DNA from: a virus
Lineage: Duplodnaviria; Heunggongvirae; Uroviricota; Caudoviricetes
IMG/VR virus record: IMGVR_UViG_3300045988_145381
DNA: 48,428 nt
Strand: one strand, 5' to 3'
Part shown: piece by piece, positions 29,316-42,983 of the stretch
Layout of the letters: each line of letters begins with the position of its first letter
Position numbering within the stretch: the stretch's first letter is position 1
Program-made: the position numbers and the translations under genes
Notes under the pieces: generated by a model
What the model was told of the DNA's origin: nothing
What the model saw: the letters and a program-made list of their open reading frames with translations, nothing else
Database searches by the model: none

Positions 29316-29391
29316 TGGTGGCCCCTACCGGATTTGAACCGATGACCGTGCGATTATGAGTCGCCTGCTCTAACCACTGAGCTAAGGGGCC
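29316..29391 (-). tRNA. tRNA, anticodon CAU (Ile2-like or Met)
   Basis: 76-nt cloverleaf GGCCCCTTAGCTCAGTGGTTAGAGCAGGCGACTCATAATCGC...GGTTCAAATCCGGTAGGGGCCACCA with encoded CCA; 5' half matches E. coli ileX-type tRNA as recalled from memory. Confidence 0.85.
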
Positions 29392-39502: not shown

Positions 39503-39751
39503 ATGGCCGCACCATCAAAACCACCAAAGAAGAACAGCAAAGGCGTACCGCCATCGATCGAACAACCGCAGGTTTTCGACCCGACTGAAACGCCAACCAG
39601 AACCAAATCAGGTGGGGCACAAATGGCGTTTAACGTCGACCCTGAATTTAAACGCGAGTACAAAACGTTCGCCAGCTCAATGGATATGTCATTGAAAGAA
39701 GTGCTGACAAAATCTTTTGAGTTACTCAAGGCTCAATACAACCAGAAGTAA
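39503..39751 (+). CDS. ParG-like small ribbon-helix-helix partition protein (putative)
   Basis: 82-aa ORF immediately after the ParA-like gene; flexible basic N-terminus and C-terminal strand-helix-helix-like segment. Confidence 0.5.
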   Translation: MAAPSKPPKKNSKGVPPSIEQPQVFDPTETPTRTKSGGAQMAFNVDPEFKREYKTFASSMDMSLKEVLTKSFELLKAQYNQK

Positions 39752-39813
39752 GAGAAGGTGACGGCCTCCAGCGCCAACTGTTGGCCGTCGCGACACAACA
39801 AGGGGAATTTGTT

Positions 39814-39963
39814 ATGTCCGAGCAACAATATACACGGTTACTAAAAACTCGTCTAATAGACCTCAAACGGCTGCAAGCTGGTCGCTTATTTGCCCTGCTA
39901 TCCACCAGGCCAGAATGGGTACGTGAAGCAGTTCTGAAAGGCTTAATGCGCTCAAGCGTTTAA
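39814..39963 (+). CDS. small hypothetical protein
   Basis: ORF 39781..39963 trimmed to MSEQQYTRLL... with aagggg Shine-Dalgarno. Confidence 0.3.
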   Translation: MSEQQYTRLLKTRLIDLKRLQAGRLFALLSTRPEWVREAVLKGLMRSSV

Positions 39964-39967
39964 ATTC

Positions 39968-39990
39968 AACCATAAAAAAGGCCCCCGAAG
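39968..39990 (-). terminator. rho-independent terminator (minus-strand orientation)
   Basis: ggcccccgaaggggcc hairpin with a T-run on the minus strand. Confidence 0.5.
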
Positions 39991-40001
39991 GGGCCTAATC
40001 G

Positions 40002-40124
40002 CTACTTGCTGCTAATGTTTATCGTCACATTTAGAGCGTTATCAGTAATCTTCCAACCCTCCCCATGTGGCGTAAACAAAGCTCCAGTAACAACGATAAA
40101 AATACACATACAGTATTTTTTCAT
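40002..40124 (-). CDS. small hydrophobic peptide (40 aa, MKKYCMCIFIVVTGALFTPHGEGW...)
   Basis: Read directly from sequence; Shine-Dalgarno-like aaggg upstream; terminator 39968..39990 immediately downstream. Confidence 0.25.
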   Translation of the reverse strand: MKKYCMCIFIVVTGALFTPHGEGWKITDNALNVTINISSK

Positions 40125-40520
40125 TGTATGGCCCTTACAGGCCGTTTCACGGCATCCCCACCGACGAAAACAACGCGAGAGCAAGCACGGCTGCTTGTGC
40201 TTGCATGTACGGCAACGGAGAATCCTCCCCTAAAGTCGGTGCCCGGGTGCGAATCGGCGGGAAGGTCCACAGGTATTTTACGATTATTTTAAGATTAGTA
40301 ATAGGAAAGAAATTAAACGAAAAAACTCGTTTATTTTCACAAAATCAGTAACCTACCCACAATCTGTGAGTTTGCAGGCACAACAAGAACCACAATTTTT
40401 TGAAGCATAATAGTGGACTATTATTACCTTTTGGGTAAAATTAACTTGCTGCTTGTGCTTGCGTGGTTGTTTATACAACAACGTAATGCTGAAAGGACCG
40501 CGAATCCGATCAGCACGAAA

Positions 40521-40549
40521 GAACCGTCCTCAATAGGGCGGTTTTTTTG
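40521..40549 (+). terminator. intrinsic terminator-like hairpin in the ant leader region
   Basis: Stem-loop followed by 7 T. Confidence 0.45.
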
Positions 40550-40690
40550 TTTCTGCCTACCAATAAACCCACGCTATGTGGTTGTCTCTGTTAAAATCCC
40601 GCCGTATTGACATGAATGCGCCATTGGTGGACACTTTCCGAGCCGTAGCAAAATCTACGGTCGGGATTGGCGTCCCGATTGCACAATGGC

Positions 40691-40716
40691 GCATACCGCG
40701 TTAGCGGTTTTTTTAT
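40691..40716 (+). terminator. intrinsic terminator-like hairpin in the ant leader region
   Basis: accgc-gtta-gcggt stem-loop followed by 7 T. Confidence 0.45.
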
Positions 40717-40876
40717 GCGTAAAGCACTGCTACACCCAAATTATGGTGGGGCGTGCGGGGGCGGAGAAATCCGCGCCGGGTTTGTCATTGTGCCGGTTAC
40801 GCCAACCCTGTACGTCTCACCACCATATTGATTGGCGTCATTGGTGGTGATAGTTCCTTTAATCGGAGATATCACA

Positions 40877-41068
40877 ATGACAAACCTACCCCATGACTAT
40901 TACGTCAACCTCGTAAAGATCCTTCTCAAGAAAGCCTCATACGCCGATAAATTCCGCCTGGCTGAAATCATCGAGCGCGAAGCTATGCGCATCGCCAGCA
41001 ACGATAACGCTGTTTCTGACGCAAAAATCTCCCTCGTAACCAAAGTAGTTATGGGAGGTGCAAAATGA
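40877..41068 (+). CDS. small protein overlapping the ant start (Icd-like position)
   Basis: 63-aa ORF (MTNLPHDYYVNL...) within ORF 40832..41068; ATGA overlap with the ant-like gene. Confidence 0.35.
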   Translation: MTNLPHDYYVNLVKILLKKASYADKFRLAEIIEREAMRIASNDNAVSDAKISLVTKVVMGGAK

Positions 41069-42246
41069 AAACGCTTCCGACCGTTAACACCCTACAGCCT
41101 ATCCTGCATAACCAGCTCCCCGTTATCACTACTGAACTACTGGCGCAATTGTATGGAACCGAGCGCCAACGTCTGACAAACAATTTCAATAGAAACAAGG
41201 AACGTTTTATAGAAGGTAAACACTTTTTTAGGATAGAAGGTAAAGAGTTACGAGAGTTGAAGAACAAAAACTCTTTAAGAGTTCCTGTGAGAGTAGTTAA
41301 CGAACCATCTTTAAGAGGGTTACAAATTCCCCCGAAAGTTCGCTCCCTCATCCTCTGGACAGAACGCGGGGCTGCACGTCACGCTAAAATGCTTGAAACT
41401 AACCAAGCGTGGGATGTGTTCGAACGGCTGGAAGACTGCTATTTCAACCAGAACGCGCAAACGGCCGCGACCGTAACCGTCTCACCAAACAATGCTCGTG
41501 AGGTTGTCGATACGCTCAACGCCAAACCGATGTTTTACATTAAAGTGTGCAACAACGAGCCACTCACAACCTCAGCCGATGTTGCCCAGGCATTCAGCAC
41601 CACAAACAATTCCATCGTTATGGCCATCGATGCGTTACGCATTCCTCGCACAGCTGCGGCGCGTCATTTCTTTAAAGAGCAACGACCGTTGGAAGGAAGC
41701 GACCGCGAAATAACAATCTATCGCATGACAAAAGACGGATTTACCTTGCTCATGGAAAGTATCGACGGTCCAGGCGTGAAGGATATCAAGCTGGCCTACA
41801 TTGAAGCCTTTAACGCTATCAGCAGCGTGTTAAAAACACAGTACGAGCGCGATCTGGCTAAACGACTGTACCAGGAAAAAACGATTATCCGCGCGGCAAC
41901 AGAGCATAATCGGCTATTAACGGAACCGAACTACAGGAAGGAACTAATCAAGGAGTTTGACAAGGCAACAGGGAAAACCAAAGCGGCGCTAAGTCTGCCA
42001 GCAATGACTCAGGAAAATGTGATATCAGCCTTACTTCTTGATCTGCTCAGAAACGCCAGAGCACTTATCAGCTTTGACGAAAACCTGAATCCTCAGCTCA
42101 AGCTACTACCACCGACAGGCAAAGTAGTCGACCAGGCTGATCACAACAGCATACTCAGCGTACTGGATGCAAACCTGCCAGCCAGGACACTACAGGATCT
42201 GATAAAAACATGTGCTGATAAGCTGGCACAGAAAAGCAGACCATAA
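41065..42246 (+). CDS. ant: antirepressor (ORF6N/KilA-N-like plus Rha/Ant-like domains)
   Basis: 393-aa ORF; N-terminal ...ITTELLAQLYGTERQRLTNNFNRNKERFIEGKHFFRIEGKELREL... and central Rha/Ant-like region; hairpin terminator at 42252..42271. Confidence 0.65.
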   Translation: MKTLPTVNTLQPILHNQLPVITTELLAQLYGTERQRLTNNFNRNKERFIEGKHFFRIEGKELRELKNKNSLRVPVRVVNEPSLRGLQIPPKVRSLILWTERGAARHAKMLETNQAWDVFERLEDCYFNQNAQTAATVTVSPNNAREVVDTLNAKPMFYIKVCNNEPLTTSADVAQAFSTTNNSIVMAIDALRIPRTAAARHFFKEQRPLEGSDREITIYRMTKDGFTLLMESIDGPGVKDIKLAYIEAFNAISSVLKTQYERDLAKRLYQEKTIIRAATEHNRLLTEPNYRKELIKEFDKATGKTKAALSLPAMTQENVISALLLDLLRNARALISFDENLNPQLKLLPPTGKVVDQADHNSILSVLDANLPARTLQDLIKTCADKLAQKSRP

Positions 42247-42983
42247 CTACAAGGGGCTACGGCCCCTTACTCTTTTCTCTCTTATCAACACCAGAGACTT
42301 TCTGAAAATCCTTTCGAATAGCGTCAGCGTCACGCGCCAAGCCCATACTCGAACGTGTCGCCATATGACGAAAATGATCAACTGCCGGAAACAAAGAAAT
42401 AATGGACCCAATAGCTTGCAGCAAACTCGCTTTTCTACGCATCATAATTCCACCATAACCGATAACCACCCTTCAGACACACCCCCCCCTCCCCCCATAC
42501 AGGGTGCCCTTTACCGGAGTTCCGGCCCCTTCTCAAAAGCATCAAAAAAAGCTCGAGATCGAGTACCGGAACTCATGCCACCAGATAGCTCCACATCGTT
42601 TCCAATGCTTCGCCGCCGTGTGCGCCCTGTGGCCCACAATCATGCCATTGGTCGTCTGATATACCTTCTTCTGCTCATAGAGCACAGGCGAGTTGTCGCA
42701 CTCCTGCCTTTCTCAGACTCGACTTAGTTTAGATCGCTGTTCCTGGCTTGCGTCAGCACACTTTCCCCTTGTACGCATACCCGCGCGCCACTTCGCCCAA
42801 AAACACCGAACCCAACGAAGTGGCAAAGACAACGACGCGAGCGTGAGTCTGAAATGGGCACCAGTAAAAAAGGGGTTGCAGGCGCAAAAAGATTTGATTA
42901 TCTTTAGACGCAAGAAAGCCGCCCCAATCAAGAGGTGTCTTTTTAAATCCAGCCTACCAAGCAAGATTTAAATTTCAGACTGA

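Follow-up and report, generated by a model that had tools for sequence, protein, structure and literature searches.

In enterobacteria, timP/timR has been described in the literature as a chromosomal type I toxin-antitoxin locus. In Salmonella, TimP is repressed by the divergently encoded small RNA (sRNA) TimR, which pairs through its 5' end with the 5' untranslated region (5'UTR) of timP, over 60 nt upstream of the ribosome-binding site (PMC7667032), and which exerts its effect by disrupting an activating pseudoknot (PMC11228461). In Gifsy-1, a translationally silent mRNA arises when transcription reads through the IsrK terminator, the short IsrK RNA activates in trans the translation of an upstream open reading frame (ORF) and, by coupling, that of the antirepressor AnrP, and STnc1160, a stable RNA located downstream of IsrK, requires the isrK promoter (PMC4825925). 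The immI region of phage P1 is annotated with an operator, promoters, a1, b1, c4, a2 (3 nt past c4), b2 (11-18 nt ahead of icd), icd itself and ant1, which overlaps icd. Relatives of these systems were recognised side by side in a viral DNA stretch of 48,428 nt (IMG/VR record IMGVR_UViG_3300045988_145381), hereafter the window, to which all coordinates refer; positions 39600-42300 were read closely and the Rfam search covered the whole window at gathering thresholds. The approximately 1.1 kb between the partition genes and the antirepressor-like gene ant very probably consist of two independent RNA control modules, with four RNA genes of known families:

39974-40548, both strands: module 1, divergent timP/timR (ryfA) type I toxin-antitoxin locus (Rfam and alignment to Escherichia coli K-12)
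40607-41068, plus strand: module 2, cassette of the P1 immI / Gifsy-1 isrK type (Rfam and order of the elements)

The initial annotation had read this stretch as a single structured noncoding leader of ant, controlled in the manner of P1 immI or P22 sar/ant. Its statement that no long ORF lies upstream of ant holds: the ORFs listed there in the window do not exceed 75 amino acids (aa) and, in line with this, PGAP annotated no coding sequence between an 82-aa gene and the 63-aa ORF preceding ant in three relatives. The RNA structure and covariance search that it had called for gave matches above gathering for ryfA, isrK and C4; in the whole window, the four Rfam matches above gathering were these three and a tRNA located outside the region, and the same set of families was found again in relatives. 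Family membership, element anatomy, complementarities and covariation were obtained directly in this way and from the alignments below. The likeness to P1 immI applies to the right part (about 40607-41068), which holds C4 (72.3 bits for a gathering threshold of 45), isrK (67.3 bits for a threshold of 50) and the P1 order of elements, and does not extend to the left 430 bp. In module 2, the elements are the following:

40607..40635, plus strand: predicted isrK/immI promoter TTGACA-17-GACACT, start at about 40642 (read from the sequence)
40642..40714, plus strand: IsrK-type RNA, 73 nt (Rfam isrK RF01394)
40667-40673, plus strand: a1, TTGGCGT, loop of IsrK hairpin 2
40682-40691, plus strand: b1, CACAATGGCG
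40695-40714, plus strand: IsrK Rho-independent terminator, stem 40695-40699/40704-40708, U-tract 40709-40714
40739..40827, plus strand: C4 antisense RNA (Rfam C4 RF01695)
40780-40792, plus strand: b', GUUUGUCAUUGUG, loop of C4 hairpin 2
40799-40805, plus strand: a', ACGCCAA, single-stranded in C4
40832..40838, plus strand: a2, TTGGCGT, complementary to a'
40865-40868, plus strand: Shine-Dalgarno sequence (SD, GGAG) of the 63-aa ORF
40873..40885, plus strand: b2, CACAATGACAAAC, complementary to b' and covering the start codon of the 63-aa ORF
40877..41068, plus strand: 63-aa ORF, in the position of P1 icd and Gifsy-1 orf45 (phrog_7886)
41065..42246, plus strand: ant, ORF6N- and Rha-domain antirepressor-like protein, 393 aa (Pfam and PHROG)

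The C4 match extends over the full model. The predicted fold of this RNA has a free energy of -46.3 kcal/mol (z = -4.8), and in the basal stem and the two inner hairpins 9 of the 27 pairs show compensatory changes in an alignment of 10 sequences, P1 included. The loop of C4 is perfectly complementary over 13-14 nt to the start codon region of the 63-aa ORF; this 14-nt perfect inverted repeat (40779-40792 / 40873-40886) had been overlooked in the initial annotation and would represent the key regulatory pairing. Its specificity was tested by covariation, using C4 and its flanks in 11 distinct loci, with relatives drawn from plasmid, phage and E. coli collections and found via the 63-aa ORF. Six a' types (ACGCCAA, GTTCCAA, AGGCTAA, GTTCGAA, TTTCGAA and TTTCTAG) and eight core b' variants occur among these loci; in each locus a1 and a2 are complementary to the locus's own a', and b1 and b2 to its own b', so that a1 and b1 of IsrK co-vary with a' and b' of C4. 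When every C4 was scored against every target, the cognate score was the maximum of its row in every row, with one tie (L003 with L018). The position of b2 differs between loci: it lies just upstream of the SD in Gifsy-1 and in the loci L008 and L021, and overlaps the SD in L019 and L020. In the window, a and b sites co-occur only at this locus, so no extra C4 target was found elsewhere. In the unprocessed transcript, b' is predicted by folding to pair with b2 in cis.

Some further pairings were noted around C4. The 3' strand of its basal stem (TCACCACCA, from 40816) can pair instead with TGGTGGTGA at 40842-40850, forming a hairpin with a2 in its loop; this a2-presenting hairpin (40816-40850) is predicted in nine related loci, and L019 and L020 have shorter co-varying forms that do not enclose a2. 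In these two viral contigs, an Rfam match to sRNA-Xcc1 (L019 2379-2464; L020 2376-2460) stands in place of C4 before the 63-aa ORF family, and the flanks are complementary to sRNA-Xcc1 in the same a1/b1, a2/b2 pattern, which suggests, at the level of sequence, that sRNA-Xcc1 elements work like C4. A 19-nt similarity between 40340-40358 and 40873-40891 (15/19) was considered as an additional C4 target and rejected: the spacer of L006 is the same, and there the similarity does not follow b2; it is therefore probably due to chance.

Upstream of C4, the promoter has the geometry of the Gifsy-1 isrK promoter and its site is conserved in all relatives. The terminator of IsrK is the second of two plus-strand terminator-like hairpins reported in the initial annotation, both of which were recovered by the promoter and terminator scan and by folding. 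IsrK and C4 are separated by a spacer of 24 nt within which no promoter was called, an arrangement consistent with C4 being processed from read-through transcripts. Three minor features accompany this part of the cassette: (i) an 11-nt perfect inverted repeat links the spacer of the isrK promoter (40616-40626, ATGCGCCATTG) to the b1 region of IsrK (40684-40694, CAATGGCGCAT), (ii) CAATGGCGCAT can alternatively pair with ATGCGT at 40715-40720, just beyond the U-tract of the terminator, and (iii) an extended -10-like sequence, TGTTAAAAT, lies upstream at 40589-40597. On the basis of the latter, there may be a second promoter like P2c4 of P1, whose transcripts could fold differently.

Downstream of C4, the small ORF reported in the initial annotation to overlap the start of ant was found as described: it starts with the ATG at 40877 and stops at 41066-41068, the ATG of ant is at 41065, and the overlap reads ATGA. 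The 63-aa product matches phrog_7886 over its full length (E 2e-47), its relatives are 66-100% identical, and a search of genome contigs with this ORF returned a single locus, in Yersinia similis. The product of ant carries the Pfam domains ORF6N (1.4e-21) and Phage_pRha (4.3e-12), matches PHROG anti-repressor families and shares, over its N-terminal 163 residues, 52% identity with Gifsy-1 AnrP (E 3e-51). In two related plasmids (L005 3584-4726; L006 3610-4752), ant is annotated as broken, with an ORF6N pseudogene and a separate Rha part, and the RNA cassette is intact.

With P1 and P7, the cassette has in common the order of promoter, a1 and b1, C4, a2 within a few nt of the end of C4, b2 in the ribosome-binding region of a small ORF, and the 4-nt overlap between this ORF and ant, as well as the C4 covariance model and structure; furthermore, the a/b specificity elements vary among relatives of the window as they do between P1 and P7. 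It differs from P1 in four respects: (i) the small ORF is not Icd-like (no BLASTP alignment to Icd, and no hit with NCBIfam phage_ICD_like, for which P1 Icd as a control scored 52.6 bits) and Ant is not similar to Ant1 (BLASTP E only 5.4), (ii) b2 lies on the start codon itself, whereas that of P1 lies upstream of the icd start, (iii) the a1/b1 element is a terminated IsrK-type RNA above isrK gathering, whereas the a1/b1 region of P1 reaches 35 bits on this model, and (iv) no C1-type operator was identified in the window. The c4/icd/ant comparison made in the initial annotation is hence apt for C4 and for the overlapping small ORF, but not for homology of that ORF to Icd. The isrK-orf45-anrP region of Gifsy-1 is alike in that both the IsrK and C4 models match with a spacer of 24-25 nt, in its promoter geometry, in the logic of the a/b complementarities and in the N-terminus of the antirepressor. 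In contrast, orf45 starts inside C4 and runs to anrP, whereas the window has a separate conserved 63-aa ORF after C4; Ant of the window has an extra Rha domain; its neighbours are partition genes and timPR, the timP/timR pair, and not antQ; and Rfam gave no match after ant for isrJ, which follows anrP in Gifsy-1. Since the frame equivalent to orf45 is not conserved, it is the separate 63-aa ORF that would occupy the place of the coupled frame, like icd in P1.

By analogy with characterised homologues, on which both modules are modelled as to the ends of their transcripts, the processing of C4, the coupling of translation, toxicity and the regulatory direction, the cassette could work as follows. 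Transcription would start at about 40642 from a sigma-70 promoter, and the majority of transcripts would end at the IsrK terminator, giving a 73-nt RNA with a1 and b1. Read-through transcripts would include C4, presumably processed out as in P1 and as for STnc1160 in Gifsy-1. The a' and b' segments of C4 would then bind a2 and b2, the start codon of the 63-aa ORF would be masked at b2 and, with this ORF untranslated, there would be no coupled translation of ant, the start codon of which shares bases with the stop of the 63-aa ORF. The short IsrK RNA carries the same a/b sequences and could therefore either titrate C4 by competition or refold the read-through RNA, which would turn ant on, as Gifsy-1 IsrK does for its antirepressor.

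The alternative that C4 acts mainly by premature transcription termination, in the manner of the P4 CI RNA with seqA/seqC, or by Rho-dependent polarity, draws on several features. In P1, a block of icd translation leads to Rho-dependent termination before ant, which speaks for this alternative. In the window, an element bearing a1 and b1 and ending in a terminator lies before C4, and IsrK has been noted as a structural homologue of P4 SeqA (PMC4825925). Against it, b2 covers the AUG of the 63-aa ORF and overlaps or adjoins the SD in other loci, which indicates translation initiation as the primary target, and the scan called no terminator-like hairpin in the interval from C4 to ant. A mainly terminating C4 is therefore improbable; termination and occlusion of the start codon are not mutually exclusive, and the former may add to the latter.

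The left part of the region, module 1, is a divergent timP/timR locus, with the following elements:

39974..40270, minus strand: timP mRNA (ryfA RNA), divergent member of the family, 297 nt (Rfam RF00126, full length)
39979-39996, minus strand: timP terminator hairpin (terminator scan)
40002..40124, minus strand: putative TimP-like small hydrophobic toxin ORF, 40 aa, MKKYCMCIFIVVTGALFTPHGEGWKITDNALNVTINISSK (position and similarity to TimP)
40159..40241, minus strand: candidate timP pseudoknot, ryfA nt 30-36 (40235-40241, CACCGAC) with nt 106-112 (40159-40165, GUCGGUG) (complementarity)
40190..40207, minus strand: predicted TimR target in the timP 5'UTR, ryfA nt 64-81, copy 1 of the direct repeat (5' arm and loop of the hairpin 40181-40188/40197-40204)
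40275-40280, minus strand: -10-like TAAAAT of timP, at the same offset as in K-12
40414..40441, plus strand: TimR promoter-like site TGGACT-16-TAAAAT (promoter scan)
40448..40548, plus strand: TimR-like antitoxin sRNA, about 101 nt with a predicted 5' end (alignment to K-12 timR and fold)
40448-40465, plus strand: first 18 nt of TimR, copy 2 of the direct repeat
40521-40548, plus strand: first terminator-like hairpin, TimR's own terminator, GC core 40524-40529/40536-40541, U-tract 40542-40548

Indeed, ryfA is matched over its full length with 143.5 bits (gathering 80); E. coli K-12 ryfA scores 314.9 bits on the same model, and the timPR copy of the window is, in its sequence, strongly diverged. 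Chromosomal ryfA was not recovered by a blastn search of E. coli genomes with the timPR part; of the 74 places that matched, 73 are on plasmids, and the single chromosomal one was left unexamined. The homology to chromosomal ryfA was therefore established by the covariance model and by direct alignment. The ATG of the 40-aa ORF is at ryfA nt 147, as in K-12, and its product is 38% identical to K-12 TimP. At the same positions as the candidate pseudoknot, K-12 has a 7-bp complementarity (CGCUGGC/GCCAGUG) in which four of the seven pairs are altered on both sides with respect to the window; by its expected position, this candidate pairing is consistent with the SL1-SL3 pseudoknot of PMC11228461.

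On the opposite strand, the -35 and -10 of the TimR promoter are kept in relatives although the sequence farther upstream is unrelated. The layout of K-12 timR is similar, with a -35, a -10 and an RNA start 6-7 nt downstream, and copy 2 of the repeat begins likewise 6-7 nt past the site of the window. The predicted folds are stable both for the TimR-like RNA (-43.5 kcal/mol, z = -5.5) and for its terminator (-22.9 kcal/mol, z = -6.4). In an alignment of five copies with the annotated K-12 timR (b4811), 60 columns are invariant across the six sequences, and both RNAs have about 100 nt. Rfam holds no TimR model, and K-12 timR itself gave no match above threshold; the matches of the TimR region to RNAI (26.7 bits) and Phe_leader (23.1 bits) are below gathering and were dismissed as chance.

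The 15-bp direct repeat GCTGCTTGTGCTTGC of the initial annotation is present, exact in both copies, one base to the left of where it had been placed (40190-40204 and 40448-40462), and extends to 17 identical positions out of 18 (40190-40207 / 40448-40465). With up to two mismatches, the repeat pattern has three matches in the window, two of them exact, and shuffled sequences gave a mean of 0.14, none of 100 reaching three. The complementary octamer that had also been pointed out, GCAAGCAC at 40181-40188, pairs with 40197-40204 and forms a hairpin within the ryfA model. Read as RNA, the repeat corresponds to a predicted 18-bp duplex between TimR nt 1-18 and ryfA nt 64-81; K-12 TimR pairs at ryfA nt 60-83. 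Among relatives, five TimR/timP pair types with compensatory changes were found, e.g. GCUGcUU, GCUGuUU, GCcGCUU and GCUuaCUU (differing positions in lower case), G-U-compatible substitutions are tolerated in the pairing site, and both RNAs are conserved across plasmid subgroups in which unrelated sequence separates the promoters of timP and TimR. The direct repeat, the octamer and the first terminator are thus parts of a type I toxin-antitoxin locus and do not belong to the control of ant.

By analogy with Salmonella TimR, the minus strand would give the 297-nt timP mRNA, encoding the 40-aa hydrophobic TimP-like protein, and the divergent plus-strand promoter a TimR-like sRNA that measures about 101 nt. 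Nucleotides 1-18 of the latter would bind the timP 5'UTR some 65 nt before the start codon and block timP translation by disrupting the activating pseudoknot. Its position beside parA/par genes, from which alone this is deduced, suggests a role of timPR in plasmid maintenance (post-segregational killing), and the placement next to partition genes makes such a role testable. The likeness to the chromosomal locus concerns the full-length ryfA, the position of the TimP-like ORF, the divergent TimR homologue of the same size, the place of the 5'UTR pairing and the candidate pseudoknot. The two differ in that the window copy is on a phage-plasmid, whereas the chromosomal one lies between sseA and sseB, and in that the spacer measures 176-177 nt without IS128 in phage-plasmids and 399 nt in K-12. 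In the K-12 timR-ryfA spacer, a match to IS128 RNA (261 bits) was recorded (L007 1516-1724).

The two modules are independent, as follows from an inserted gene, from cassette loci without ryfA and from reassorting variants. Indeed, (i) a 573-bp minus-strand gene encoding a helix-turn-helix (HTH) domain, absent from the window, separates the TimR terminator from the isrK promoter in a Yersinia phage (L001 3574-4146) and in plasmid pL25922_3 of E. coli ATCC 25922 (L004 3064-3636), (ii) no ryfA was seen in the available sequence of five loci that carry an isrK or C4-type cassette, the 63-aa ORF and ant, and (iii) timPR pair types and C4 a'/b' types combine differently among relatives. These observations also bear on the proposal of the initial annotation that the whole of 40125-41068 is one long structured 5' leader of ant, with the repeat and the hairpins as cis attenuators on a single transcript. 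Both hairpins do lie on the ant strand, and no long ORF interrupts the stretch; however, the left part is ryfA, on the opposite strand, the repeat is accounted for by the TimR/timP pairing, its covariation and the homology to K-12 timR, the two hairpins are parted by the inserted gene in L001 and L004, the cassette, small ORF and ant occur in five relatives without ryfA in their available sequence, and the TTGACA promoter sits between the hairpins. A single leader is accordingly very improbable.

Partition sites are often repeats near partition genes, and some 440 bp separate the direct repeat from the end of the par-like genes, downstream of which it lies, but it has just two copies, one in a conserved ryfA hairpin and the other at the predicted 5' end of a terminator-flanked TimR homologue, K-12 has the same complementarity with unrelated sequence at the same positions, and the tolerated G-U-compatible substitutions fit RNA pairing, so that a protein-binding site at the DNA level (partition site or operator of the parA-type genes) is hardly credible.

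As for the comparison with P22, sar/ant resembles the window in that the antirepressor is controlled at the level of RNA. However, sar is transcribed in cis and in antisense over the ribosome-binding site of ant, whereas the regulator of the window is on the same strand and upstream; there was no Rfam match to sar at E <= 1, and the window scan called no minus-strand promoter or terminator near the start of ant (40850-41100). Control of the sar type was therefore abandoned.

Several points weigh against the interpretation as two RNA modules. In module 2, the predicted -10 of isrK (GACACT) is weak, which is why the automatic promoter scan did not call the site, and the model c4-a1b1 (RF03163) reaches 41.7 bits over 40629-40681, just below its gathering threshold of 46.7. 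Neither the 63-aa ORF nor Ant is related to its counterpart in P1 (Icd and Ant1, respectively), and the frame equivalent to Gifsy-1 orf45 is not conserved: it has 35 codons in the window, where it ends 27 nt before the 63-aa ORF, and 8-45 codons in relatives. For these reasons, the details of coupling may differ from those in P1 and Gifsy-1. In module 1, the 40-aa ORF matches NCBIfam toxic_TimP over its full length (E 7e-5), but with 23 bits for a cut-off of 45. Finally, the 5' ends, the read-through of the terminators, the processing of C4 and all regulatory effects stand on analogy. With these points taken into account, a timP/timR type I toxin-antitoxin locus followed by a switch of the P1 immI/isrK type is the best explanation overall, and a highly probable one.

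The region is 100% identical to two E. coli plasmids of 48,056 bp; about 70 further plasmids of roughly 47-50 kb match it at 83-99% identity and three Yersinia pestis phages (~49 kb) at 88%. Other genes of the window code for an IncFII-type RepA, a resolvase, a ParA-type ATPase and an XRE-type HTH protein. Given these genes, and since its relatives are plasmids and phages, the window is a phage-plasmid of E. coli.

For annotation, the analysis places four RNA genes and a toxin ORF where PGAP leaves the related plasmid records examined empty. Every element belongs to a described family, and the current understanding of either system is unchanged. Modestly new are the divergent mobile timPR copy, with a TimR homologue missed by library models, and the set of natural a'/b' variants on near-identical phage-plasmids. 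The timP/timR locus is hence present also on phage-plasmids, beside partition genes, and no paper in the literature library searched names ryfA along with a phage-plasmid. Natural C4/IsrK specificity variants on near-identical backbones lend themselves to work on heteroimmunity and on the specificity of antisense RNAs; at least five a'/b' combinations occur among plasmids otherwise 83-100% identical in the region. A more tentative proposal, which we consider rather doubtful, is that the timPR copy is the first mobile member of its toxin-antitoxin family, serving as an addiction or anti-phage module of the ~48-kb E. coli/Yersinia phage-plasmids, and, separately, that C4 a'/b' form a combinatorial immunity code. 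If true, the latter would make co-resident or superinfecting relatives heteroimmune.

Two features lie outside the modules. A GC-rich hairpin (GGGGCTACGGCCCC, 42254-42270) is found directly past the stop of ant, before a convergent minus-strand ORF of 70 codons. The tRNA gene detected by Rfam (67 bits, gathering 29) has the anticodon CAU and is located at 29319-29391 on the minus strand.

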